IMG/VR virus record: IMGVR_UViG_2534681702_000002
Source: a virus
Taxonomy: Duplodnaviria > Heunggongvirae > Uroviricota > Caudoviricetes
Direction: 5' to 3' (one strand)
Length of the DNA: 15,630 nt
The notes beneath the pieces are model-generated. The model did not search any database. It had not been told where the DNA came from and was given only the letters and a program-made list of their open reading frames with translations. The position numbers and the translations under genes are program-made. Shown here piece after piece: positions 1 to 15,630 of the stretch. Each line of letters opens with the position of its first letter. Position 1 is the first letter of the stretch.

Positions 1-1164
1 TTACGCCTTCTTTATATCCTCCATAATTCCAGAGTGGGACATATTTGGGACATTATCACCAAAAATGTCGTCTATTTTCCTCGCATGCTCTGTCAAATGA
101 TTAGGCGCAAGGTGAGCATACCTACGAACCATTTCTATGGACTCCCATCCGCCCATTTCCTGAAGCACTGATAATGGGACGCCTGACTGAATCAGCCAGC
201 TTGCCCAGGTGTGTCTGAGGTCATGGAAACGGAAATCTTCAATTCCTGCACGACGACAAGCTGATAGCCATGATGTCTTGCTGTCGATGCGCATCTTCCT
301 GACCGCAGGCGTTGATGTTCCATCTGCTCGCTTAGCCGCCTTGGTATGTACAAACACCCATTTGTGATGCTTGCCTATTTGATCACGCAACACTTTACAG
401 GCGGTATCGTTCAGCGCCACACCAATGGCGCGGTTTGATTTGCTCTCTTCTGGATTCACCCAGGCAACTCGTCGCTGCATGTCGATTTGTTGCCATTCCA
501 GATTTATGATGTTCGACTTTCTCAGACCAGTTGCCAGCGCAAACTTGACGACAGATTTCAGTGGTTCGGGGCACTCATCAATAAGGCGTTTTGCTTCCTC
601 CTTTTCCAGCCATCTGACTCGCTTGTTTCTGACCGCTGGTATCTTGATGACAGGCGCTTTTTCCAGCCACTTCCAGTCGCGTTCTGCAGCACGGAGAATG
701 GCCTTTATCATGGCAAGATGCTTTGCCTTTGTCTGAGTTGATACTGGCTTTGGTTCATAAACAGGCGGTTCTTTACCTTTCCTGATGGCGGCCTGAACTT
801 TCTGTTTCCATATTTCTTTCGTCTTTCTGTTATGCATTCTGCTTACAGCAGAGTAAATCTTTGCCTCCGAGATATCTTTAAGCCTTATACCCTCAAAATG
901 TTCAAGCCAGAACTCAATCCGGCTTTTATCTGAATCGAGAGATTTTTTATCAGCTTTTTCCTCAAGCCATCTTAGGCAGGCCTCTTCAAAAGTGACATCA
1001 GGTAAATCCCCTAGCTTTTCTACTCGCCAGAGTTCTGCTTTTCGCTTGTCGTGCAACTCCTGAGCTTGCCGCTTGTCCTTTGTGCCAAGAGATTCCTTAA
1101 TTCGTTTCCCGCCCGGGAGCGAATACGAGGCATACCATATTTCATTTCTGCGGAAGAGTGACAT
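1..1164 (-). CDS. intD: Phage tyrosine integrase (387 aa), DLP12 IntD-like
   Basis: Full-length minus-strand ORF with ATG at 1164..1162 and GAGGAAAG Shine-Dalgarno upstream. C-terminal region carries the tyrosine-recombinase catalytic motifs (HDLRHT...RRY). The sequence matches my recollection of E. coli K-12 IntD. Confidence 0.88.
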
Positions 1165-1391
1165 TTTCTTTCCTCTGTTATGCCATCACCCGCGCTCACC
1201 TGGACAGTATGCAGCGGAGACTGAAGCGCCGCAATGCAGGCTTGCCGTGTTGTGAGGTAAGGAGATTTTGGCTTGGTTGGATCTTTACGTGTTGCCTGTA
1301 GGCGGCCTGTTCGTATCCAGTTGGTGGCGGTTGGTCTGGATATCTTAAGAAACTGACAGGCCTCATCGAGTGTGAGGCTGTATGATTCCAT
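1020..1391 (-). CDS. xis: Excisionase-like DNA-binding protein (AlpA/Xis family), 123 aa from the ATG at 1391
   Basis: Minus-strand ORF directly upstream of int. ATG at 1391..1389 preceded by GAGGTAACC. N-terminus [31 protein letters not shown] is a typical Xis/AlpA helix-turn-helix. The 3' end overlaps int by 145 nt, which is unusually long for xis, so the C-terminal part may not be native. Confidence 0.6.
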
Positions 1392-1641
1392 GGTTACCTC
1401 TGCTTTTTGAACGCATGTCACGTAACTTCTTAATGTGTTCTGCCGTTTCGATCTCTTCTGCTATCCGATCTGCATCAGCTTTATTCACAGGTTCAAAGTC
1501 ATGATTAAAGCGGAACATGCTGGCGATACATGTTCTGCCTTTTCGGATGTAGTGAACTTTGTTGTGGGTAGAACGCAGGATTTTGCAGGGAGTGCCGTGG
1601 TGGTCGACGTACCAGGTGTTAGGCAAAATGATTCTGAACAT
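1363..1641 (-). CDS. Hypothetical small phage protein (92 aa)
   Basis: Minus-strand ORF with ATG at 1641..1639 and a GAGGTG Shine-Dalgarno 7 nt upstream. Its last ~9 codons overlap the xis start. No recognisable motif. Confidence 0.4.
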   Translation of the reverse strand: MFRIILPNTWYVDHHGTPCKILRSTHNKVHYIRKGRTCIASMFRFNHDFEPVNKADADRIAEEIETAEHIKKLRDMRSKSRGNHGIIQPHTR

Positions 1642-1654
1642 TTTTACACCTCAG

Positions 1655-1714
1655 TTGGAAGGTATGGCGAAAACACAGGTTATGTGGCTGAAAGAGGGGA
1701 TTATTAAGGCGTGA
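1655..1714 (+). pseudogene. 3' remnant (~19 codons) of the gene normally upstream of rusA (ybcO-like), lacking a start codon
   Basis: The frame ending at TGA 1712..1714, overlapping the rusA GTG, translates ...[19 protein letters not shown]. This resembles the C-terminus of the small protein I recall preceding rusA in K-12 (ybcO). The similarity is lost upstream of about 1655. Confidence 0.3.
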
Positions 1715-2073
1715 ATACCTACAGCATCACATTACCCTGGCCTCCGAGCAATAATCGCTATTACCGCCATAATCGCGGGCGCACGCACGTCAGCGCAGAG
1801 GGGCAGGCATACCGCGATAACGTCGCCAGAATCATTAAAAACGCAATGCTGGATATCGGCCTGGCTATCCCTGTGAAAATCCGCATTGAGTGCCACATGC
1901 CGGATCGCCGTCGCCGTGACCTGGATAATCTGCAAAAAGCCGCTTTTGACGCACTCACTAAAGCAGGTTTCTGGCTGGATGATGCTCAGGTCGTTGATTA
2001 CCGCGTTGTGAAGATGCCTGTTACCAAAGGTGGGAGGCTGGAACTGACCATCACCGAAATGGGGAATGAATGA
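1711..2073 (+). CDS. rusA: Holliday-junction resolvase RusA (120 aa), GTG start
   Basis: ORF translation [37 protein letters not shown]... matches recalled RusA over its full length. GTG start at 1711 with AGAGGGG upstream. Confidence 0.92.
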
Positions 2074-2210
2074 TGTTTGAGTTTAATATGGCAGAACTTC
2101 TTCGCCACCGCTGGATGCGCCTGCGCTTATATCGTTTCCCCAGTTCTGTTTTGACCGATTACCGAATACTGAGGAATTACGCCAAAACCCTGACAGGAGC
2201 AGGAGTATGA
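2070..2210 (+). CDS. ylcG: Small protein YlcG-like (46 aa)
   Basis: Not in the ORF track because it is under 60 aa. ATGATG at 2070 overlaps the rusA stop. Translation [46 protein letters not shown] matches recalled YlcG in sequence and in position between rusA and Q. Confidence 0.6.
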
Positions 2211-2295
2211 AGTCAGAGATAACAATCAACTAATACTGTTTTATTGATTTTTGCTTGTAATTGGCGTTCTGGTCTGATTTTTGTGGAGTAAGTTG

Positions 2296-2679
2296 ATGCG
2301 TGATATTCAGATGGTTCTTGAGCGTTGGGGAGCGTGGGCGGCTAATAATCATGAAGATGTGACCTGGTCGTCCATTGCCGCCGGTTTTAAGGGATTAATT
2401 ACTTCAAAAGTAAAATCTCGCCCGCAATGTTGTGACGATGACGCGATGATCATTTGCGGGTGCATGGCCCGTCTGAAAAAGAACAACAGCGATTTGCACG
2501 ATTTATTAGTAGATTATTATGTAGTCGGTATGACATTCATGTCACTGGCAGGTAAGCATTGCTGCTCTGATGGTTATATCGGGAAAAGGTTACAGAAGGC
2601 TGAGGGCATAATTGAAGGGATGTTAATGGCATTAGATATCCGGTTAGAGATGGATATCGTTGTTAATAACTCTAATTAA
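2296..2679 (+). CDS. quuD: Late-gene antiterminator Q (127 aa), phage 82/21-type
   Basis: ATG at 2296 with GGAG upstream (the track ORF begins earlier at a TTG). Cysteine-rich region ([24 protein letters not shown]) typical of Q-family proteins. Lies between rusA/ylcG and the lysis genes as in lambdoid phages. Confidence 0.8.
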
Positions 2680-2695
2680 TATGCCAATTGTTTAC

Positions 2696-2731
2696 TAAAA
2701 ATTATTAAAAATGGGGCGTTGAGACGCCCCC
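2696..2731 (-). terminator. Putative rho-independent terminator for minus-strand (nmpC) transcripts
   Basis: Perfect inverted repeat GGGGCG-ttgaga-CGCCCC at 2713..2730, followed on the minus strand by AUUUUUAAUAAUUUUU. Confidence 0.5.
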
Positions 2732-2820
2732 AAAAATAAAGGGTAATATATAACAGAAGGTTTATATAGTTAGAAGCAAGGTTGTGCTTCTAAAGGAAGT
2801 GGCTTGAGGGAGCCACTTAT

Positions 2821-2858
2821 ATGTTGGGGAGGCAAAGCCTCCCGCAACATATCTTTTT
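2821..2858 (+). terminator. Putative rho-independent terminator downstream of Q (tR'-like)
   Basis: Inverted repeat ATGTTGGGGAGGC-aaa-GCCTCCCGCAACAT at 2821..2850, followed by a TCTTTTT tract on the plus strand. Two further short hairpins lie at 2771..2792 and 2797..2820. Confidence 0.5.
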
Positions 2859-2868
2859 CGTAATCAGA

Positions 2869-3951
2869 TTAGAACTGATACACCAGACCTACAGCGACGA
2901 TGTCGTCGGTATCAATACCAGCTGTTTTGGTAAACTTACTATCGTCAATTAAGTTGATTTTGTAATCAACAAAAGTGGACATGTTTTTATTAAAGTAGTA
3001 AGTAGCACCGACATCGACATACTTGACTAAGTCTCGGTCACCATGAACACCAAGGTCTTTACCTTTTGACTGAAGGTAAGCAACAGATGGTCGCAGACCG
3101 AAGTCAAACTGATATTGTGCTACTGCTTCAAAGTTTTGTGCTTTGTTTGCAATATGGTTATTACCAAAAACGGTCATATTCTGAGTTTCAGAATATGTGG
3201 TAGCCAGATAGATATTGTTCGCATCATATTTCAGGCCTGCAGCCCATACTTCCGCATTTTTGCCGGAGGCATTGAATTTGCTCTTACCATAGGCGACCTG
3301 ACCGTCAGTGCGATCTGATTTAGCATAGGTTGCACCCACGCCGAATCCTTCATACTCATAAGTAGTGGAGAAACCGAAACCATCACCATTGGCTTCAGTT
3401 ACGTCAGTGCGGTCATTTTTACCCTGATACTGAGCAGCAAAGTTCAGGCCATCGACCAGACCAAAGAAGTCGTTGTTACGATAGGTTGCAACACCAGTGG
3501 TGCGACCAGTCATGAACACATCTGTTTGGGTCCAGGTATCGCCACCGAATTCTGGCAGAACGTCAGTCCACGCACCGATGTCGTATGCTACACCGTAGTT
3601 ACGGCCGTAATCGATTGAGCCGTAGTCACCGAATTTCAGGCCTGCAAATGCAAGACGGGTTTTGTCTTTGGAGGAACCTTGAGATTCAGCGCGGTTGCCT
3701 TTGAATTCATATTCCCACTGACCGAAACCAGTCAGTTGATCGTTGATTTGGGTTTCACCTTTGAAGCCAAGACGGGCATAAGTAGTATCACCATCATCTG
3801 CATCGTTAGAGGAAAAGTAGTGCTTGGCATTAACTTTCCCGTACAGATCCAGCTTGTTACTGTCTTTATTATAAATTTCAGCTGCCTGAGCAGACATCGT
3901 CATCAGTACTGATGCAGCTACAGCAGAAATTGCCACTGTTAATTTTTTCAT
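2869..3951 (-). CDS. nmpC: Outer-membrane porin, OmpC/Lc family (NmpC-like), 360 aa, apparently intact
   Basis: Signal peptide [23 protein letters not shown] followed by [16 protein letters not shown] and a C-terminal ...AVGLVYQF beta-barrel terminus. This is the classic general-porin signature and matches recalled NmpC/Lc. Confidence 0.85.
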
Positions 3952-4539
3952 CGTGAGCCCTTTTTTTTGAACTATTATTAAAAAATGATGTCACTGCGCG
4001 ATAAATATTCATCTAATCAATGTGATTATTTCAAGATGTAAGTTTTAGTTTCTCATTTAATTTGTGAAGTAGATCTCTATTTTTATCTGAACTTTTTCTA
4101 TCGAAACCTATTTATGGCTCTTATTTGAACAAAAATAAACCTATTAGCTAATTTATATTAATGGCTGTTATTTATGGGGGGGCTATAATTCGGTGGTTTA
4201 ATTTAAATCAACTAAAAATAACGCCGGAAATTATTTATTGGTTATTTGTTGAGGTTTTCTTATATATTTGTGGTGGTGTTTTGAACACTCGGTAGCATTC
4301 TCATAAATATCATTCAGTGGTTTACGTACGTAAAAAATTGGTTATGCTGTTAAGAGTGGTTACTTCGTCACACAGCTTAAACCCGCCGTCGAGCTGGTTT
4401 TTCCATTTTTTGAGTCTCGATATTAGCTGATAACTCAATACCTGAGTTATTCACTGACTCCGAGTCTGTTACGTTTCTGCTTTTTTGCGATACGTTGTAT
4501 TCCCTCAATTTACACCCGCTTTGTCTGCGAGGTGGGGTT

Positions 4540-4755
4540 ATGAAATCCATGGATAAGTTAACAACGGGTGTCGCCTATGGCACCTCAGCAGGTAGTGCCG
4601 GTTACTGGTTTTTACAGCTGCTCGATAAAGTCACGCCCTCACAGTGGGCAGCAATAGGTGTGCTGGGTAGCCTGGTATTTGGCCTGCTGACGTACCTGAC
4701 AAACCTTTATTTCAAGATTAAAGAAGATAAGCGCAAGGCTGCGAGAGGTGAATAA
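4540..4755 (+). CDS. essD: Class II holin (pinholin), S21-like, 71 aa
   Basis: [71 protein letters not shown] matches recalled phage 21 S / EssD. Real start is the ATG at 4540, inside the longer track ORF. Confidence 0.85.
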
Positions 4756-5252
4756 TGCCTCCATAATTACGAAAAGCCGTTGCTGCTGCTATTGGTGGCG
4801 GAGCAATTGCTATAGCATCAGTGTTAATCACTGGCCCAAGTGGTAACGATGGTCTGGAAGGTGTCAGCTACATACCATACAAAGATATTGTTGGTGTATG
4901 GACTGTATGTCACGGGCATACAGGAAAAGACATCATGCTCGGTAAAACGTATACCAAAGCAGAATGCAAAGCCCTCCTGAATAAAGACCTTGCCACGGTC
5001 GCCAGACAAATTAACCCGTACATAAAAGTTGATATACCGGAAACAACGCGCGGCGCTCTTTACTCGTTCGTTTACAACGTGGGCGCTGGCAATTTCAGAA
5101 CATCGACGCTTCTTCGCAAAATAAACCAGGGCGATATCAAAGGCGCATGTGATCAGCTACGTCGCTGGACATATGCTGGCGGTAAGCAATGGAAAGGTCT
5201 CATGACTCGTCGTGAGATTGAGCGTGAAATCTGTTTGTGGGGTCAGCAATGA
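4755..5252 (+). pseudogene. rrrD: SAR-endolysin (R21/RrrD-type lysozyme) with an in-frame TAA at codon 4; only a GTG at 4821 could restart, giving a 143-aa product without the N-terminal SAR domain
   Basis: The ATG at 4755..4757 overlaps the holin stop (TAATG coupling) and is followed by CCT CCA TAA. The same frame continues as [32 protein letters not shown]... (SAR hydrophobic segment) into the lysozyme domain. Recalled RrrD starts [12 protein letters not shown]..., so codon 4 TCA has become TAA. Confidence 0.6.
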
Positions 5253-5710
5253 ACAGAGTAACCGCGATTATCTCCGCTCTGGTTATCTGCATCATCGTCT
5301 GCCTGTCATGGGCTGTTAATCATTACCGTGATAACGCCATTACCTACAAAGCCCAGCGCGACAAAAATGCCAGAGAACTGAAGCTGGCGAACGCGGCAAT
5401 TACTGACATGCAGATGCGCCAGCGTGATGTTGCTGCACTGGATGAAAAATACACGAAGGAGTTAGCTAATGCGAAAGCTGAAAATGATGCTCTGCGTGAT
5501 GATGTTGCCGCTGGTCGTCGTCGGTTGCACATCAAAGCAGTCTGTCAGTCAGTGCGTGAAGCCACCACCGCCTCCGGCGTGGATAATGCAGCCTCCCCCC
5601 GACTGGCAGACACCGCTGAACGGGATTATTTCACCCTCAGAGAGAGGCTGATCACTATGCAAAAACAACTGGAAGGAACCCAGAAGTATATTAATGAGCA
5701 GTGCAGATAG
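5249..5710 (+). CDS. rzpD: Spanin inner-membrane subunit Rz (153 aa)
   Basis: ATG at 5249 overlaps the rrrD stop. N-terminal transmembrane segment followed by coiled-coil sequence. Matches recalled RzpD. Confidence 0.85.
5469..5651 (+). CDS. rzoD: Spanin outer-membrane lipoprotein Rz1 (60 aa), embedded in rz in the +1 frame
   Basis: Lipoprotein signal with lipobox LVVVGC, followed by a proline-rich mature region ([15 protein letters not shown]). Entirely nested within rzpD. Confidence 0.8.
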
Positions 5711-5741
5711 AGCTGCCCATATCGATGGGCAACTCATGCAA

Positions 5742-6035
5742 TTATTGTGAGCAATACACACGCGCTTCCAGCGGAGTATAAATGCCTAAAGTAATAAAAC
5801 CGAGCAATCCATTTACGAATGTTTGCTGGGTTTCTGTTTTAACAACATTTTCTGCGCCGCCACAAATTTTGGCTGCATCAACAGTTTTCTCCTGTCCAAT
5901 TCCCGAAACGAAGAAGTGATGGGTGATGGTTTCCTTTGGTGTTACTGCTGTCGGTTTGTTTCCAACAGTAAACGTCTGTTGAGCACATCCTGTAATAAGC
6001 ATTGCCAGAGCGGCAGAAAACAACATTTTTTTCAT
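5742..6035 (-). CDS. borD: Bor lipoprotein (serum-resistance family), 97 aa
   Basis: Real start is MKKMLFSAALAMLITGC..., inside the longer track ORF. Lipobox LITGC. Matches recalled lambda Bor / BorD. Confidence 0.85.
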   Translation of the reverse strand: MKKMLFSAALAMLITGCAQQTFTVGNKPTAVTPKETITHHFFVSGIGQEKTVDAAKICGGAENVVKTETQQTFVNGLLGFITLGIYTPLEARVYCSQ

Positions 6036-6394
6036 CTTATTATCCTGCATTGTTAAAAACGGCAGAATCCTATGTGACAACAATTAAACGATAGTTAAAT
6101 GGATTGATGAAAATTAAAACTATATAGGTGGATGCTCAGCCTATTGGAGGAGGGGGGCACTCAGAATCCTGTGGAATGAAATAAACCGCTCTTTCTGTCC
6201 ATTACCCTTTTAGCTGCGCTGTATCGTCGCCGTATTCCCGCATTAACCATGACCGTAGCCCGACGGGGAATTCCTTCTGCGTGAGTGTGCGGGAATAATC
6301 AAAAACGATGCACACCGGGTTTTACTGTGCTGACAGACGCAGGGTTACCCTCATAGTCGCTTTTCCGGTGCGATGGTGGAAGAAACCGGGATGT

Positions 6395-6589
6395 TTATTC
6401 ATCATCACTCTGGATTGATGTATATGCTCTCTTTTCTGACGTTAGTCTCCGACGGCAGGCTTCAATGACCCAGGCTGAGAAATTCCCAGACCCTTTTTGC
6501 TCAAGAGCGATGTTAATTTGTTCAATCATTTGGTTAGGAAAGCGGATGTTGCGGGTTGTTGTTCTGCGGGTTCTGTTCTTCGTTGACAT
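6395..6589 (-). CDS. ylcI: Small basic protein (64 aa), YlcI-like (DUF3950-type); possible ribbon-helix-helix DNA binder
   Basis: Arginine-rich N-terminus MSTKNRTRRTTTRNIRFPNQMIEQINIALEQKGSGNFSAWVIEACRRRL. Sits immediately upstream of cos/nohD, where I recall ylcI in K-12. The assignment is from memory. Confidence 0.45.
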   Translation of the reverse strand: MSTKNRTRRTTTRNIRFPNQMIEQINIALEQKGSGNFSAWVIEACRRRLTSEKRAYTSIQSDDE

Positions 6590-6749
6590 GAGGTTGCCCC
6601 GTATTCAGTGTCGCTGATTTGTATTGTCTGAAGTTGTTTTTACGTTAAGTTGATGCAGATCAATTAATACGATACCTGCGTCATAATTGATTATTTGACG
6701 TGGTTTGATGGCGTAGATGCACGTTGTGACATGTAGATGATAATTATTA

Positions 6750-6977
6750 TCATTTTGCGGGTCCTTTCCGGCGATCCGACAGGTTACGGGGCGGCGACCT
6801 CGCGGGTTTTCGCTATTTATGAAAATTTTCCGGTTTAAGGCATTTCCGTTCTTCTTCGTCGTAACTTAATGTTTTTATTTAAAATACCCCCTGAAAAGAA
6901 AGGAAACGACAGGTGCTGAAAACGAGCTTTTGGGCCTCTGTCGTTTCCTTTCTCTGTTTTTGGCCGTGGAATGAACA
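6750..6977. other. Lambda-type cos site (cosQ-cosN-cosB) with lambda right-end-like flank
   Basis: GGGCGGCGACCT, the lambda 12-nt cohesive-end sequence, lies at 6789..6800. It is preceded by ...CCGACAGGTTACG (lambda right terminus) and followed by CGCGGGTTTTCGCTATTTATGAAAATTTTCCGGTTTAAGG... (lambda left-end cosB region), running up to the Nu1 start. Recognition is against the lambda sequence as I remember it. Confidence 0.8.
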
Positions 6978-7523
6978 ATGGAAGTCAACAAAAAGCAGCT
7001 GGCTGACATTTTCGGTGCGAGTATCCGTACCATTCAGAACTGGCAGGAACAGGGAATGCCCGTTCTGCGAGGCGGTGGCAAGGGTAATGAGGTGCTTTAT
7101 GACTCTGCCGCCGTTATAAGATGGTATGCCGAAAGGGATGCTGAAATTGAGAACGAAAAGCTGCGCCGGGAAGTTGAAGAACTGCGGCAGGCCAGCGAGA
7201 CAGATCTCCAGCCAGGGACTATTGAGTACGAACGCCATCGACTTACGCGTGCGCAGGCCGACGCACAGGAGCTGAAAAATGCCAGAGACTCCGCTGAAGT
7301 GGTGGAAACCGCATTCTGTACTTTCGTGCTGTCGCGGATCGCAGGTGAAATTGCCAGTATTCTCGACGGGATCCCCCTGTCGGTGCAGCGGCGTTTTCCG
7401 GAACTGGAAAACCGACATGTTGATTTCCTGAAACGGGATATCATCAAAGCCATGAACAAAGCAGCCGCGCTGGATGAACTGATACCGGGGTTGCTGAGTG
7501 AATATATCGAACAGTCAGGTTAA
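6978..7523 (+). CDS. nohD: Terminase small subunit Nu1 (181 aa)
   Basis: MEVNKKQLADIFGASIRTIQNWQEQGMPVLRGGGKGNEVLYDSAAVIRWYAERD... is near-identical to recalled lambda Nu1 across its length. Confidence 0.92.
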   Translation: MEVNKKQLADIFGASIRTIQNWQEQGMPVLRGGGKGNEVLYDSAAVIRWYAERDAEIENEKLRREVEELRQASETDLQPGTIEYERHRLTRAQADAQELKNARDSAEVVETAFCTFVLSRIAGEIASILDGIPLSVQRRFPELENRHVDFLKRDIIKAMNKAAALDELIPGLLSEYIEQSG

Positions 7524-7713
7524 CAGGCTGCGGCATTTTGTCCGCGCCGGGCTTCGCTCACTGTTCAGGCCGGAGCCACAGACCGCCGTTGAATGGGCGG
7601 ATGCTAATTACTATCTCCCGAAAGAATCCGCATACCAGGAAGGGCGCTGGGAAACACTGCCCTTTCAGCGGGCCATCATGAATGCGATGGGCAGCGACTA
7701 TAACTGTTATTAA
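7498..7713 (+). pseudogene. Terminase large subunit (gpA) N-terminal fragment, about 66 native codons then divergence and a stop
   Basis: MNISNSQVNRLRHFVRAGLRSLFRPEPQTAVEWADANYYLPKESAYQEGRWETLPFQRAIMNAMGSDY matches the recalled lambda gpA N-terminus. Downstream of about 7700 the sequence is unrelated (NCY*). The start overlaps the Nu1 end as in lambda. Confidence 0.85.
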
Positions 7714-8626
7714 TGAAAATCCGACAGCACAAGGATATCAGGCAATTGCTGTAAACACGAATGATGCTTACACCTGCCCGGCAGGTTCTTATACGACGAT
7801 ATCGTGTCTGACGAAAAGTGATAATTCCCGGTGTCGTGCAAGGTTCGGAAAAATGTCTGATAATGGTGCGTTTGTTTTTCATTCAGATGCAGTTCTGGAT
7901 CCTGTTACGGGAAATGTTGTTCATGGAAATAATGTGACGGTGACGGCAGAAAGAGTCGGTGAATGGTGGTTGTTTACCGCCACTCTTTTTGCAGATGCGG
8001 AAATGATAATCAGCTCAAGATTTGAAATCCTGGCGATGCCTGGAATCAGTATTATCCCCAATGGCTCTACGTTAGATATTGCGATGCCTCAGGCGGAGAT
8101 TGGGTCGTACAGGACGTCATTTATCATTACTGAAGGGGCTCCTGGCACTCGCTCCAGCGACATGGTGACAATACCTGTAAGAAACAATATTCACCGATTA
8201 CCATTCAGTGCTCTTGTTGAAGTTAATAAAAACTGGGATATCCCTCCCAGCAAATCACCATTAATCTTTAATGTTAAAGATTATCAGGAAAATGGTCTGT
8301 TCACGCATGGATTCCGTGGTAATAATTTCTCTGATGCCGGTTCTCCTTTTATTTCTATGGGAGGGTGTAATAAATATGTGGCAACAACCCAGAGGAAAAT
8401 CATTTCAGGCTTCCGTTGTGGCGCTGATGGAGATGTTCAGGCCGTATGTAATGGTGAATTATCTGTTGCGGCAAAAACAACATGGACTTCAATTGTTCCA
8501 CGGGCAGTATTGCGAATTGGAGGGCAGGGCACTAATGGGGAGTATCATCTTTTTGGTCATATCCGTAATCTGCGTATCTGGCATAAAGAATTAACTGATG
8601 CGCAAATGGGGGAGAGTATTAAATGA
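7682..8626 (+). CDS. Chimeric ORF (314 aa): C-terminal fragment of a phage fibre / receptor-binding-type protein with a ConA/LamG-like C-terminus; its first 7 codons are terminase-A sequence read out of frame
   Basis: C-terminal ...NGEYHLFGHIRNLRIWHKELTDAQMGESIK resembles the end of LamG/concanavalin-like lectin domains. The ATG at 7682 has no convincing Shine-Dalgarno and sits inside the gpA remnant. Domain call is pattern recognition only. Confidence 0.4.
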   Translation: MRWAATITVINENPTAQGYQAIAVNTNDAYTCPAGSYTTISCLTKSDNSRCRARFGKMSDNGAFVFHSDAVLDPVTGNVVHGNNVTVTAERVGEWWLFTATLFADAEMIISSRFEILAMPGISIIPNGSTLDIAMPQAEIGSYRTSFIITEGAPGTRSSDMVTIPVRNNIHRLPFSALVEVNKNWDIPPSKSPLIFNVKDYQENGLFTHGFRGNNFSDAGSPFISMGGCNKYVATTQRKIISGFRCGADGDVQAVCNGELSVAAKTTWTSIVPRAVLRIGGQGTNGEYHLFGHIRNLRIWHKELTDAQMGESIK

Positions 8627-8904
8627 AAGATTTAACACTCAAATTTGCAGACAGGGCCGACTTTTCGGCCTTTATGGAGAGTATTGGCTATTATGATGAC
8701 GAGTCGATGCAGGATGATATTCTTATTGACGTGATAGGTAACGTGTACAAAGAAACCGGAGAACTGACTGAAGATGGCGAACCGGTATGTGTTAAGGAAG
8801 ACGGATATTTTGTAAACGTGCGCATCATTAATGATGTAAAAAAATCGTCAATATTCGATAAATACGCGGTTGTTGTTGAGCATCAACTTCGTGGCTGGAT
8901 GTGA
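8623..8904 (+). CDS. Hypothetical acidic protein (93 aa)
   Basis: ATG overlaps the stop of the preceding ORF (AAATGA). No recognisable motif. Separated from the next ORF, in the same frame, by one TGA plus 9 nt. Confidence 0.45.
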   Translation: MKDLTLKFADRADFSAFMESIGYYDDESMQDDILIDVIGNVYKETGELTEDGEPVCVKEDGYFVNVRIINDVKKSSIFDKYAVVVEHQLRGWM

Positions 8905-8913
8905 GGGAGACAA

Positions 8914-9618
8914 ATGGCTACATCGACAGTAATTCCAGGAGATATCACCACGCTAAAGGGAGATGTCAGTAAAACTAAGGAAGATATTTCCTCAATTAAC
9001 GGAAAAGTATCAACGCTTCAGACTGATATGACCAGTGCAAAGCAGGATATCAGCACCAGATACACAAAAACTGAAGTTGATAATAAGCTGAAAAACAAAC
9101 TGGAAGTGAACGATCTGGAAAGCGGTCGTTATGGTGGAGATTTTTACCCGTTGACTGGCCGTGAAGCGTTTTATATGTGGGGATTGGGCACGACTACAGC
9201 GGCGGCAAACCTTTATCTTAATCCTGACCCTGCAATTTCGTCTGTACTGCGGTCAACATCGTCTATTCGCTATAAACATTCAGTAGAGACGATAGATTCA
9301 GAGCACGCCGATCTCATTTTCAGGATGCGCCCTGTGTGGTACAGGTCGCAATACGAAAATGACAGGCGTGACTGGGGATTCTACGGATTGATTGCCGAGG
9401 AAGTAGGAGAAATTGCCCCTCAGTTTGTACACTGGCGACCAGCTAACGAAGATGATGCTCCTGAAGCTATTTCCAGCAATGGCCTTGTTGCCGAAGGTGT
9501 AATGTACGAACGTCTGGTTGTTCCACTGATTCACCATATCCAGAAGCTGACTGAAAGAGTTGATGAACTTGAGTCAGAATTAAAGTTGTTATCCGTTTCC
9601 CGAAGCGATATCGGATAA
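8914..9618 (+). CDS. Tail-fibre-like protein (234 aa): N-terminal coiled coil plus C-terminal intramolecular-chaperone (peptidase S74-type) domain
   Basis: GAGGGAG Shine-Dalgarno before the ATG. C-terminal segment ...RMRPVWYRSQ...GFYGLIAEEVGEIAPQFVHW...GVMYERLVVPLIHHIQKLTERVDELESELK fits the conserved pattern of fibre/tailspike auto-cleaving chaperone domains. N-terminal 70 residues are heptad-like (KGDVSKTKEDISSINGKVSTLQTDMTSAKQDIS). Confidence 0.6.
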   Translation: MATSTVIPGDITTLKGDVSKTKEDISSINGKVSTLQTDMTSAKQDISTRYTKTEVDNKLKNKLEVNDLESGRYGGDFYPLTGREAFYMWGLGTTTAAANLYLNPDPAISSVLRSTSSIRYKHSVETIDSEHADLIFRMRPVWYRSQYENDRRDWGFYGLIAEEVGEIAPQFVHWRPANEDDAPEAISSNGLVAEGVMYERLVVPLIHHIQKLTERVDELESELKLLSVSRSDIG

Positions 9619-9628
9619 AGGAGGAGTA

Positions 9629-9922
9629 ATGGATATAACACCTTTCCTTCATGCGCTTTGTGCTGTGGCTGCGCAGCTACTGATTGGTCTTTTTACCGGG
9701 AACTGGGCTTACGGGGCGATAGCCGGTTGTACGTTCTTCATTGCGCGTGAACACACCCAGGCAGAATATCGCTGGATCGAAATGTTCGGGCATGGCAAGC
9801 GAATGAATATGCCGTGGTGGGGCGGTTTTGATACACGTGCATGGGATGTGGCAAGCCTGATGGATTTTGCTGTGCCGGTGGTGGCGTGTCTGCTGGTCTG
9901 GCTGTTGGTTAATCGTGGGTGA
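9629..9922 (+). CDS. Small membrane protein (97 aa) with two predicted transmembrane helices
   Basis: Strong AGGAGG Shine-Dalgarno 6 nt before the ATG. Hydrophobic stretches at about residues 8-32 and 77-94, with a Trp/Arg-rich loop between them. No recognisable family. Confidence 0.55.
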   Translation: MDITPFLHALCAVAAQLLIGLFTGNWAYGAIAGCTFFIAREHTQAEYRWIEMFGHGKRMNMPWWGGFDTRAWDVASLMDFAVPVVACLLVWLLVNRG

Positions 9923-9932
9923 AAAAAGGTGA

Positions 9933-10052
9933 GCTGTATATGCAACGGAGGAAGAAAACTCGTTGCTGGAAGCCTGGAAAAAGTATCGGGTGCTGCTAAA
10001 CCGTGTGGACACTTCCGTAGCACCAGATATCGAGTGGCTTATTCAACCATAA
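9933..10052 (+). pseudogene. tfaX: 3' remnant of a tail-fibre-assembly (Tfa) gene, about 39 codons, no start codon
   Basis: Open frame translates ...[36 protein letters not shown], matching the recalled C-terminus of lambda-type Tfa proteins. Position directly upstream of appY matches K-12 tfaX. Confidence 0.55.
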
Positions 10053-10596
10053 TAAACAGTATGTATATCATAGGTTATTAATTGTGAGTTTTTTCGGTGT
10101 GTTATTTGTTTGTTTGATGTTATGCTTTTGCGCCCCAAAAGGTTGTTTAGATGTATTTTATCAATTGATTTTCAATGTCGTTTAATAAAGAAAAATTAAG
10201 CAAGCTGGATGTTGGTTTTTTGTTAATTGAATGGTTCTAATAATGTTTTTTTACTGTTGTTGAATGTGACTTGATAAGAAATGCAAGTAAAAATGATACT
10301 CTTTTTATTTTAAATTCAAACGGTTGACATATATATAGCAAGAGGTTTCAGGTGCGTTGTAGTGAGTTTATGTTAATAAAAAGTATAGTAAGCGTTGAAA
10401 AATGTAACTTTGAAATACGTTAGAATAAAAACAATATACATATAATAATTTAATCTTAAATGAAATTTATTAAAATTTGCAAACTATAATTTTGTGTATA
10501 AAAATATAAATGCACATCATCCTGATTATGATTGTGTATTTAATTGGTTGTTATTTGACTGCTATCAACTTGTTTTAATTTTATGATAGGTGCAAG

Positions 10597-11339
10597 ATGG
10601 ATTATGTTTGCTCCGTAGTTTTCATCTGTCAATCATTTGATTTAATTATAAACAGGAGAGTTATCTCGTTCAAAAAAAATTCATTGTTTATTGTAAGCGA
10701 CAAAATTAGAAGGGAGTTACCAGTATGCCCCTCTAAACTAAGAATTGTTGATATAGATAAGAAAACATGTTTATCCTTTTTTATCGACGTGAATAATGAG
10801 CTGCCTGGCAAATTTACTCTTGATAAGAATGGCTATATTGCTGAAGAGGAACCTCCATTATCGCTTGTTTTTTCTCTGTTTGAAGGGATTAAAATAGCAG
10901 ACTCACACTCCCTTTGGTTAAAAGAAAGACTATGTATATCCTTACTTGCCATGTTCAAAAAACGCGAAAGTGTAAATTCATTTATACTAACAAATATAAA
11001 TACATTCACCTGTAAAATTACTGGAATAATCAGTTTTAATATTGAGCGGCAATGGCATTTAAAAGATATTGCGGAATTGATTTATACGAGTGAAAGTTTA
11101 ATAAAAAAAGATTAAGGGATGAAGGAACGTCATTTACTGAAATATTGAGAGATACTAGGATGAGGTATGCAAAAAAACTCATAACTTCAAACTCTTATTC
11201 TATCAATGTCGTAGCCCAGAAATGTGGCTATAACAGTACTTCATATTTCATATGTGCATTTAAAGATTATTATGGTGTCACGCCATCTCATTATTTTGAG
11301 AAAATAATCGGCGTCACAGATGGAATAAACAGGTAATGA
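10597..11339 (+). pseudogene. appY: AraC-family regulator AppY, disrupted by a 1-bp frameshift at an A7 run (11103..11109) and by an IS1 insertion 12 nt before its native stop
   Basis: The 172-aa ORF (10597..11115) and the 63-aa ORF (11145..11336) are in different frames, yet together form a continuous AraC-type C-terminal helix-turn-helix domain (...[19 protein letters not shown] / [25 protein letters not shown]...[18 protein letters not shown]). The native last codons (AAA ACA ATT GAC TGA) lie at 12882..12896, beyond the IS1 pair. Confidence 0.85.
11323..11331. repeat. 9-bp target-site duplication GAATAAACA, left copy, of the outer IS1
   Basis: Identical 9-mer immediately flanks both ends of the outer IS1 (11323..11331 and 12876..12884). 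Confidence 0.85.
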
Positions 11340-11378
11340 CTCCAACTTATTGATAGTGTTTTAGGTAGTGACTCCAAC

Positions 11379-11882
11379 TTACTGATAGTGTTTTATGTTC
11401 AGATAATGCCCGATGACCTTGTCATGCAGCTCCACCGATTTTGAGAACGACAGTGACTTCCGTCCCAGCCTTGCCAGATGTTGTCTCAGATTCAGATTAT
11501 GTCGCTCAATGCGCTGAGTGTAACGCTTGCTGATAACGTGCAGCTTTCCCTTCAGGCGTGATTCATACAGCGGCCAGCCATCCGTCATCCATACCACGAC
11601 CTCAAAGGCCGACAGCAGGCTCAGAAGACGCGCCAGTGTGGCCAGAGTGCGTTCACCGAAAACGTGCGCCACAACTGTCCTCCGTATCCTGTCATACGCG
11701 TAAAACAGCCAGCGCTGACGTGATTTAGCACCGACGTAGCCCCACTGTTCGTCCATTTCCGCGCAGACAATCACATCACTGCCCGGTTGTATGCGCGAGG
11801 TTACCGACTGCGGCCTGAGTTTTTTAAGTGACGTAAAACCGTGTTGAGGCCAACGCCCATAATGCGGGCAGTTGCCCGGCAT
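11379..11882 (-). CDS. insB: IS1 InsB reading frame (167 aa), expressed as the InsAB' transposase by -1 frameshifting; inner copy
   Basis: Translation matches IS1 InsB. Overlaps insA in the -1 frame. Identical at protein level to the copy at 14634..15137. Confidence 0.9.
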
Positions 11883-12076
11883 CCAACGCCATTCATGGCC
11901 ATATCAATGATTTTCTGGTGCGTACCGGGTTGAGAAGCGGTGTAAGTGAACTGCAGTTGCCATGTTTTACGGCAGTGAGAGCAGAGATAGCGCTGATGTC
12001 CGGCGGTGCTTTTGCCGTTACGCACCACCCCGTCAGTAGCTGAACAGGAGGGACAGCTGATAGAAACAGAAGCCAC
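11801..12076 (-). CDS. insA: IS1 InsA (91 aa), inner copy
   Basis: [43 protein letters not shown]... is the zinc-finger plus HTH InsA. The A6C frameshift motif (TTAAAAAAC) lies at its 3' end. Confidence 0.9.
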
Positions 12077-12104
12077 TGGAGCACCTCAAAAACACCATCA
12101 TACA

Positions 12105-12626
12105 CTAAATCAGTAAGTTGGCAGCATCACCGTGTTTTATGTTCAGATAATGCCCGATGACTTTGTCATGCAGCTCCACCGATTTTGAGAACGACAGCGA
12201 CTTCCGTCCCAGCCGTGCCAGGTGCTGCCTCAGATTCAGGTTATGCCGCTCAATTCGCTGCGTATATCGCTTGCTGATTGCGTGCAGCTTTCCCTTCAGG
12301 CGGGATTCATACAGCGGCCAGCCATCCGTCATCCATATCACCACGTCAAAGGGTGACAGCAGGCTCATAAGACGCCCCAGCGTCGCCATAGTGCGTTCAC
12401 CGAATACGTGCGCAACAACCGTCTTCCGGAGCCTGTCATACGCGTAAAACAGCCAGCGCTGGCGCGATTTAGCCCCGACGTATCCCCACTGTTCGTCCAT
12501 TTCCGCGCAGACGATGACGTCACTGCCCGGCTGTATGCGCGAGGTTACCGACTGCGGCCTGAGTTTTTTAAATGGCGGAAAATCGTGTTGAGGCCAACGC
12601 CCATAATGCGGGCGGTTGCCCGGCAT
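12105..12626 (-). CDS. insB: IS1 InsB reading frame, outer copy; C-terminus altered (…[11 protein letters not shown]) because the ORF runs into the inserted inner IS1
   Basis: About 90% identical to the inner InsB. The last two native codons (YQ) are replaced by read-through into the inner IS1 end, extending the ORF to 173 aa. Confidence 0.8.
12132..12139. repeat. 8-bp target-site duplication GTGTTTTA, right copy, of the inner IS1 (left copy at 11356..11363)
   Basis: Direct 8-bp repeat, itself part of the outer IS1 sequence, flanking the inner 768-bp element. Confidence 0.85.
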
Positions 12627-12820
12627 CCAACGCCATTCATGGCCATATCAATGATTTTCTGGTGCGTACCGGGTTGAGAAGCGGTGTAAGTGAACTGCAG
12701 TTGCCATGTTTTACGGCAGTGAGAGCAGAGATAGCGCTGATGTCCGGCAGTGCTTTTGCCGTTACGCACCACCCCGTCAGTAGCTGAACAGGAGGGACAG
12801 CTGATAGAAACAGAAGCCAC
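12545..12820 (-). CDS. insA: IS1 InsA (91 aa), outer copy
   Basis: InsA-like. Differs from the inner copy at two residues (…GLNTIFRHL versus …GLNTVLRHL). Confidence 0.9.
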
Positions 12821-12875
12821 TGGAGCACCTCAAAAACACCATCATACACTAAATCAGTAAGTTGGCAGCATCACC

Positions 12876-12884
12876 GAATAAACA
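12876..12884. repeat. 9-bp target-site duplication GAATAAACA, right copy, of the outer IS1; also restores the native appY 3' end
   Basis: Same 9-mer as 11323..11331. Reading across it gives ...GGA ATA AAC AAA ACA ATT GAC TGA (G I N K T I D *). Confidence 0.85.
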
Positions 12885-13146: not shown

Positions 13147-14100
13147 TTAAAATGTGTACTTAAGACCAGCAGTAGTGATGAAGTTATAGTTTTCTATACC
13201 TGCTCCATTTTTGCTGTAGTCTGAAGTGTTATTATTGTGATCATAAAGTGAAGTATTACCTTTTTTATTCGTAACCCGATTCCATGCGCCTTCAACATAA
13301 ACTTTTGCGTTAGGTGTGACGTAATAACCTGCATTGACTGCAACAGAATAGTAATTTTGGTCTTTGACCTTACTGCGATAAGTGATTCTTTTTCCCGGGT
13401 CATAGTGTTCATCGTTATCAGATGATTCCACCCAGCCGCTGTATTTAAATGTGCCACCGAGTTCAAAATCTTCATAACGATAACTTCCAGTCAAGCCAAT
13501 GTAGGGCATTTTAAAACGTTGTTTGTAGCCGATTGCTCTTTCTCCATTCGGGAAGGAGCCGATATCATCTCTGAATCCCTCCTCAGAACTGTAGATATAG
13601 GAACCACCTCTGGCTGTAAAGCTATAACGGCTTTCCTGATATCCGGCCATGAGTCCCAGGCGGTAATTGGGTTCGTTGAGGAGCCAACCTTTGATATTCA
13701 GATCAAATTCGTTGGCATAATTGAGTTGTGTATCAGGGTGTCTACTTTCATCCGTCCAGGTTCCGGGGTTACTGGAATCCATCCAGTCCTGATCGACCAT
13801 ATTGCCACCTCGGCTGCCGAGAGTTGTCCAGCCAGCAGCCCCGATAGATATCTGGGGCATCAAATCCCAATTAATTGCACCTTTAATAATTGCAGCGTTA
13901 TTGAATTTCCAATCGAGTTGACTGACTTTTCGGCCTCCTTCTTCGGCTAGATAAACACGCTCTTTTGTTTTTCCGCTCAGAGTTCCAAAACTAATGTCCG
14001 CATTTATGTTGTCAGGAGTAAACGATATAGTCTCGGTAGAAGCAAAAGAGCTGATCGCAATAGGGGTTGTCAGGACTATTCCCAGAAGTTTCGCCCGCAT
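13147..14100 (-). CDS. ompT: Outer-membrane protease OmpT (omptin, protease VII), 317 aa
   Basis: MRAKLLGIVLTTPIAISSFASTETISFTPDNINADISFGTLSGKTKERVYLAEEGGRKVSQLDWKFNNAAIIKGAINWDL... matches recalled OmpT over the full length. Ends with the beta-barrel terminus ...AGLKYTF. Confidence 0.95.
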   Translation of the reverse strand: MRAKLLGIVLTTPIAISSFASTETISFTPDNINADISFGTLSGKTKERVYLAEEGGRKVSQLDWKFNNAAIIKGAINWDLMPQISIGAAGWTTLGSRGGNMVDQDWMDSSNPGTWTDESRHPDTQLNYANEFDLNIKGWLLNEPNYRLGLMAGYQESRYSFTARGGSYIYSSEEGFRDDIGSFPNGERAIGYKQRFKMPYIGLTGSYRYEDFELGGTFKYSGWVESSDNDEHYDPGKRITYRSKVKDQNYYSVAVNAGYYVTPNAKVYVEGAWNRVTNKKGNTSLYDHNNNTSDYSKNGAGIENYNFITTAGLKYTF

Positions 14101-14439
14101 AAAAGTTCTCCATTCAATCGTTTTAATGATTGAATATGTATTTTTTATATCTAACTTAATGAGTCAATTACATATTGCTCCACTGTTTATATTTTGTTTA
14201 GTATTGAATGATTATCACAATGCGCTATCTGTTTTTGGTTTAATTATCTGTTATTGTTTCATATTGCGGTTTTACTGTGTGGTTTTTTTATGCTTTTGTG
14301 GTGCTTTTATCTATTTAAGTGCCATGCCTTTAGAGGCATATAAGCGAAAATAGCATGAGGTTTATCCTCAATTACTATGTTTTTGGTGATGCTGCCAACT
14401 TACTGATTTAGTGTATGATGGTGTTTTTGAGGTGCTCCA

Positions 14440-14715
14440 GTGGCTTCTGTTTCTATCAGCTGTCCCTCCTGTTCAGCTACTGACGGGGTGGTGCGTAACG
14501 GCAAAAGCACCGCCGGACATCAGCGCTATCTCTGCTCTCACTGCCGTAAAACATGGCAACTGCAGTTCACTTACACCGCTTCTCAACCCGGTACGCACCA
14601 GAAAATCATTGATATGGCCATGAATGGCGTTGGATGCCGGGCAACTGCCCGCATTATGGGCGTTGGCCTCAACACGGTTTTACGTCACTTAAAAAACTCA
14701 GGCCGCAGTCGGTAA
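14440..14715 (+). CDS. insA: IS1 InsA (91 aa), third copy
   Basis: Protein identical to InsA of the inner IS1. Confidence 0.9.
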
Positions 14716-15137
14716 CCTCGCGCATACAACCGGGCAGTGATGTGATTGTCTGCGCGGAAATGGACGAACAGTGGGGCTACGTCGGTGCTAAATCACGTCA
14801 GCGCTGGCTGTTTTACGCGTATGACAGGATACGGAGGACAGTTGTGGCGCACGTTTTCGGTGAACGCACTCTGGCCACACTGGCGCGTCTTCTGAGCCTG
14901 CTGTCGGCCTTTGAGGTCGTGGTATGGATGACGGATGGCTGGCCGCTGTATGAATCACGCCTGAAGGGAAAGCTGCACGTTATCAGCAAGCGTTACACTC
15001 AGCGCATTGAGCGACATAATCTGAATCTGAGACAACATCTGGCAAGGCTGGGACGGAAGTCACTGTCGTTCTCAAAATCGGTGGAGCTGCATGACAAGGT
15101 CATCGGGCATTATCTGAACATAAAACACTATCAGTAA
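14634..15137 (+). CDS. insB: IS1 InsB reading frame (167 aa), third copy
   Basis: Protein identical to InsB of the inner IS1. A6C frameshift motif TTAAAAAACTC at about 14690. Confidence 0.9.
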
Positions 15138-15154
15138 GTTGGAGTCACTACCCG

Positions 15155-15630
15155 TTAGCGGATATTTGTTTGCCTCCTTTTTTTTACCCAGCATACCCCA
15201 TCCCAACAATTTGAATTAAATGTCGTAAAATTGATAACTTCTTTACCTTTTGAAAAATATGTTATTGGGCAAAACTCATCTCCACTTAATGGTTTAAAGC
15301 TGGTTATTATGTCACAATTTAATTGTTGTGATAGTGATTGAGCGATGAAATCAGTTAGAGATGGAAGATACTTGCTTTCAATCGATGTTGTTGATGTGCC
15401 GAAATCAACTTCATAAGAAAAATCAATCTTCGCTAGTAATTCAATATATTCTGCATCTTTGTCAATAAAAGATGTGTCATAAGTAATGTTTTTTTATACT
15501 CATTTACATCAAAGTAGTCATATTTTAATATCGAAAAGTCAATGTCTAGAGCATTTACAAACTTATAAATACTATCGGTTAGTTTACTTTTATCTTTATA
15601 CTCTATGAGTATACTTGATTTGGTGATCAT
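15155..15630 (-). pseudogene. Low-GC gene of unknown function, frameshifted at an A7 run (plus-strand T7 at 15489..15495); stop codon 2 bp from the IS1 end
   Basis: The minus-strand ATG sits exactly at the window edge, so the true N-terminus may lie beyond it. Frame a reads MITKSS...DYFDVNEYKK and stops at 15433. The adjacent frame continues NITYDTSFIDKDAEYIELLAKIDFSYEVDFG...CWVKKRRQTNIR* for about 113 codons with no Met, so it is a continuation rather than a separate gene. Identity unknown. Confidence 0.4.

Follow-up and report, generated by a model that had tools for sequence, protein, structure and literature searches.

We asked how two IS1 elements came to lie one inside the other at the 3' end of appY, and in which order they arrived. 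The window, that is, the whole stretch of DNA analysed here (15,630 nt; IMG/VR virus record IMGVR_UViG_2534681702_000002), spans a DLP12-type cryptic prophage between intD and appY and, after it, ompT. A first-pass annotation, made from the letters of the window alone, had described one IS1 inserted into another near the appY stop codon, with a 9-bp target-site duplication around the outer and an 8-bp duplication around the inner copy, and had placed the outer insertion first. The nested arrangement and both pairs of direct repeats were found base for base as it had described them (Table 1).

Table 1. Coordinates of appY, of the nested IS1 copies with their target-site duplications and genes, and of the third IS1 in the window
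Feature	Positions	Strand	Remarks
appY pseudogene	10597-11336	+	frameshift and 3' truncation by the outer IS1
Outer IS1, left 9-bp target-site duplication GAATAAACA	11323-11331		within the last appY codons
Outer IS1, detached 32-bp insB-side end	11332-11363	-	
Inner IS1, left 8-bp target-site duplication GTGTTTTA	11356-11363		outer-IS1 sequence, positions 25-32 from its end
Inner IS1, complete, IS1X2-like mosaic isoform	11364-12131	-	768 nt
Inner insB	11379-11882	-	
Inner insA	11801-12076	-	
Outer insB	12105-12626	-	continues into the inner element
Inner IS1, right 8-bp target-site duplication GTGTTTTA	12132-12139		
Outer IS1 main body, IS1B-like	12140-12875	-	
Outer insA	12545-12820	-	
Outer IS1, right 9-bp target-site duplication GAATAAACA	12876-12884		the displaced appY end, 11 nt and the stop, comes next (to 12898)
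Third IS1	14385-15152	+	inverted relative to the inner copy, 768/768 identical to it

With the inner copy taken out together with one of the 8-bp repeats, the two outer segments (11332-11363 plus 12140-12875) joined into an element of 768 nt. In window orientation the inner IS1 starts with the bases GGTAGTGACTCC and ends with GCAGCATCACC, and the nested junctions read ...TTGATAGTGTTTTA/GGTAGTGACTCC... and ...GCAGCATCACC/GTGTTTTATGTTC... (insertion points marked by a slash). The detached 32-bp end of the outer element contains the complete 23-bp terminal inverted repeat GGTAATGACTCCAACTTATTGAT, which matches the opposite end at 18/23 positions. The inner insertion was previously said to split this terminal inverted repeat region; the repeat is in fact intact, with the insertion just inside it at outer positions 25-32. 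The insertion directly adjoins a sequence in the same 32-bp end that matches the IHF consensus WATCAANNNNTTR (TATCAATAAGTTG, 11343-11355, minus strand). At the protein level, the inner insertion changed the last two residues of the outer InsB, as the first-pass annotation had noted, from YQ (previously ...KHYQ*) to GDAANLLI; the accompanying extension by 6 aa, from an ORF of 167 to one of 173 aa, had been missed. As they stand, the conceptual InsAB' fusions are 238 aa for the outer and 232 aa for the inner copy.

Both copies are members of the IS1 family. Each is 768 nt long, has imperfect terminal repeats of the GGTGATGCTGCCAACTTACTGAT type (18/23 between ends), and carries a 91-aa InsA ORF overlapped by the InsB ORF, with the A6C site for -1 frameshifting between insA and insB' (AAAAAAC) at position 307. 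The InsAB' products of both copies matched the Pfam domains Zn_ribbon_InsA, HTH_Tnp_IS1 and DDE_Tnp_IS1 (PF03811, PF12759 and PF03400; E-values 1e-19 to 1e-76, above the curated cut-offs). IS1 typically makes target-site duplications of 8 or 9 bp (PMC12065110), and the duplications of the outer (9 bp) and inner (8 bp) copies both lie within this range. Compared with known IS1 elements (IS1B/IS1C of E. coli K-12, IS1X2-like), the nesting is the sole difference.

The two copies differ from each other at 47/768 positions (6.1%). Of these differences, 41 fall at positions 91-507 (window orientation), the insB part, where divergence reaches about 9-10%; the earlier figure of about 10% for InsB is therefore a fair one for the DNA. 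In the proteins, 14 differences were counted within the first 165 residues of InsB, and 2 within the 91 of InsA. Alignment to reference isoforms, for which the annotated IS1 copies of K-12 MG1655 and one plasmid copy annotated IS1X2 were used, upheld the assignment of the copies to different isoforms. The reconstructed outer element is IS1B-like, with 2 differences from IS1B/IS1C (766/768) and 9 from IS1A/IS1E. The inner element is a mosaic, IS1A/B-like in its insA part (no difference from IS1A at positions 1-261 from the insA end) and IS1F-like in its insB part (8 differences from IS1F after position 265, 28 before it), and is identical at 762/768 positions to the plasmid copy, the transposase of which is annotated as IS1X2 family.

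The first-pass annotation had proposed a comparison of the locus with other E. coli genomes. Among 5,426 complete E. coli genomes, both the empty site and the single-IS1 intermediate were found. A reconstructed empty-site query with one GAATAAACA was matched in 805/5,426 genomes (300/300 positions, unbroken, in E. coli C and REL606), and the 9-bp sequence is single-copy in the empty-site genomes. The junction of the appY end with the reconstructed outer IS1 was matched in one piece and at 100% identity in 29/5,426 genomes, which belong to the ETEC O6:H16 group. The best matches to the region all came from this group and have a single IS1, rather than two, between appY and ompT; in E1433, FORC_031, TW10598, B2C, 2011EL-1370-2 and others of this group, the single IS1 shares the site, the 9-bp duplication and the orientation of the outer copy, and the inner IS1 is absent. 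The reconstructed outer IS1 is identical over 768/768 positions to the single IS1 that ETEC E1433 carries at the identical appY site between the same 9-bp repeats. Because positions 1-11366 of the window are 99.93% identical to E1433, this is a comparison between close relatives. A contiguous match across the nested junction was found in 0/5,426 complete E. coli genomes. Since the empty site and the single IS1 occur in other genomes and the nested form in the window alone, the sequences place the outer insertion first and the inner one second, and the order proposed from the window itself is borne out. Excision of the inner copy with one repeat restores an outer IS1 already known from E1433, which argues for a nested insertion and not for a tandem dimer or a composite element.

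Among relatives, three sequence versions of the IS1 at this same appY site were seen (E1433, 2014EL-1346-6 and 2011EL-1370-2). One of them equals the outer copy, a second differs from it at 7 positions and is nearer to IS1A, and the third is a mosaic with inner-type (IS1X2/IS1F-like) variants in its insB part. The three versions suggest that IS1 copies underwent gene conversion once the insertion had taken place. A derivation of the 2011EL-1370-2 mosaic from the nested form was considered and rejected; a single crossover that joined the inner copy to the outer body would retain the 32-bp stub and produce an 800-bp element, which was not observed, and gene conversion from another copy appears the simpler reading. 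The loci of E1433, 2014EL-1346-6 and 2011EL-1370-2 also lack the third IS1 of the window and the deletion associated with it (see below). In 20AR0300 and WP2-S18-ESBL-07, an IS1 sits elsewhere in the AT-rich spacer between appY and ompT, roughly 90 to 120 bp further in. Because these insertions are at different positions, the appY-ompT region has been struck by IS1 independently at least three times.

The nested junction was also sought outside the complete E. coli genomes. A degenerate exact pattern that allowed either IS1 end at the same position had no match in GTDB species representatives, and the same pattern had none in metagenome contigs; among the plasmid matches listed, none was a nested junction, and all were single IS1 ends. 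Thus the nested form has no independent confirmation outside the window, and there is no sign of a recurrent hot spot. With the junction resting on this one assembly, and with IS1 present in at least about 39 places in related genomes, a kind of repeat that is often misassembled, the nested structure might be taken as an assembly artefact, in which a single IS1 at appY was wrongly represented by two stacked copies. However, a misjoin is not expected to yield a copy that is exactly 768 nt long and has perfect 8-bp direct repeats on either side, nor to leave an outer copy that can be restored to 768/768 identity with that of a relative. Moreover, the 47 differences between outer and inner copy mean that they are not one repeat collapsed or duplicated. 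We therefore consider an artefact of this kind very unlikely.

A third IS1 lies in the same window and has no target-site duplication; it is located at a deletion junction. Its left flank (14100-14384) is the ompT upstream region and matches E1433 up to the IS1, and the counterpart of its right flank (15153-15630) in ATCC 8739 is located on the far side of nfrB and an ISAs1 element. Judged from these flanks, envY, ybcH, nfrA, nfrB and ISAs1 appear to have been deleted at the third IS1. The junction of the ompT upstream region with this IS1 had no one-piece match in complete genomes. Together the inner and third copies form a perfect pair of 768-bp inverted repeats, separated by 2,253 bp, on either side of the outer IS1 body and ompT, and such a pair could support inversion by homologous recombination or movement as a composite unit. 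In E1433 (602439-603136), an IS1 identical to the inner and third copies adjoins ISAs1 on one side and a truncated allC on the other, which we read as another IS1-linked rearrangement in this lineage. A shared ancestral site for this IS1 and the third IS1 was not supported, as their flanks end 74 bp apart (ATCC 8739 coordinates). The inner isoform has other copies in the same genome, among them the identical one 2.25 kb away in the window, and E1433 has an identical copy too. The third IS1 is possibly the donor or a sibling of the inner copy. In K-12 MG1655 (279163-280111), IS1B directly adjoins a 181-bp IS30 fragment, a familiar case of one insertion sequence disrupting another.

Rearrangement through IS1 has thus taken place in this stretch, where the third IS1 without a target duplication marks a deletion, and gene-conversion mosaics occur in the appY IS1 of relatives. 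Both observations might be taken as a hint that it was not a simple insertion but recombination or replicative transposition that gave rise to the nested structure, for example through cointegrate resolution or by unequal crossing-over between IS1 copies. However, homologous recombination between IS1 copies does not flank a complete element with an 8-bp target duplication, and copies that stem from intramolecular replicative events have no direct repeats beside them, whereas here both pairs of repeats are intact. The third IS1, without flanking repeats, is what the outcome of recombination or a replicative event looks like. An origin of the nested copies by such routes is extremely unlikely.

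Two successive simple IS1 transpositions very probably made the nested structure. In the first event, an IS1B-like element would have inserted just before the appY stop in an ancestor of the ETEC O6:H16 group, duplicating the 9 bp GAATAAACA and replacing the KTID terminus of AppY by a single R. In the second, which would have occurred in the lineage of this window only, an IS1X2-like mosaic IS1 would have entered the outer copy just inside its insB-side terminal repeat, duplicating the 8 bp GTGTTTTA. Both events may be ascribed to the normal reaction of the InsAB' DDE transposase, produced by -1 frameshifting at A6C. The outer element retains both of its ends and should still be movable as a 1,544-bp unit, and the inner element is, as far as its sequence tells, intact and autonomous. 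The reading frames of both copies are intact, and either transposase may be active.

The position of the inner insertion raises a further possibility. IHF has been described at IS1 (Prentki et al. 1987, as cited in PMC11043490), and a role of the adjacent IHF site in the choice of target may be suggested on the basis of this single event. Taken further, positions 25-32 beside the IHF-consensus site would be a preferred self-target of IS1, and nested copies would be non-random and would seed variants or composite units; one such composite unit could then be the ompT segment between the two identical inverted IS1 copies. We regard this reading as highly improbable. In laboratory evolution, six IS1 variants arose from insertion of IS1 into IS1, at a frequency in line with the chance expectation (PMC12065110).

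What did the insertions mean for appY? The outer insertion changed the C-terminus of AppY from ...DGINKTID* to ...DGINR*; here the first-pass annotation had the replacement of KTID by R correct and the distance to the stop wrong, the element lying 11 nt, not 12, before the TGA. A -1 frameshift in the A-run at 11095-11102 (A7 in the window versus A8 in E1433) had escaped that annotation. The appY frame consequently ends at 11115 after 172 aa and lacks the HTH domain; the AraC-type HTH domains are encoded downstream of the frameshift, in the out-of-frame part. Strain 2011EL-1370-2 is annotated with the same frameshift, and single-IS1 relatives with an appY of 741 nt. In this window appY is a pseudogene, IS1 or not, and the change from KTID to R is without consequence here because the gene is already broken by the frameshift.

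These results bear on the annotation of the strain, in which appY should be recorded as a pseudogene (frameshift plus IS1) and the outer IS1 as a single interrupted element instead of two partial copies that have nothing to do with each other. Within the IS1-rich ETEC O6:H16 group, the nested junction could be used as a marker specific to this strain. The nested IS1 raises no new biological question, and insertions of IS1 into IS1 are ordinary events that have been documented before (PMC12065110). The main value of the locus is that of a clean worked example, in which the sequence gives the order of two transpositions and related genomes confirm it.

Among the closest known systems is the laboratory evolution of Kanai et al. 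(NAR 2025, PMC12065110), in which IS1 likewise inserted into IS1, giving nested variants, and no self-avoidance was reported. Nested copies there brought homologous repeats close together and offered several alternative transposable sub-units, and nesting is noted to favour recombination and the transposition of sub-segments (PMC12065110). The IS1 of that system had been engineered for high activity and was studied in a reduced genome, whereas the window comes from a natural isolate and combines two distinct natural isoforms. Also unlike that system, the single-IS1 intermediate survives here in related genomes.
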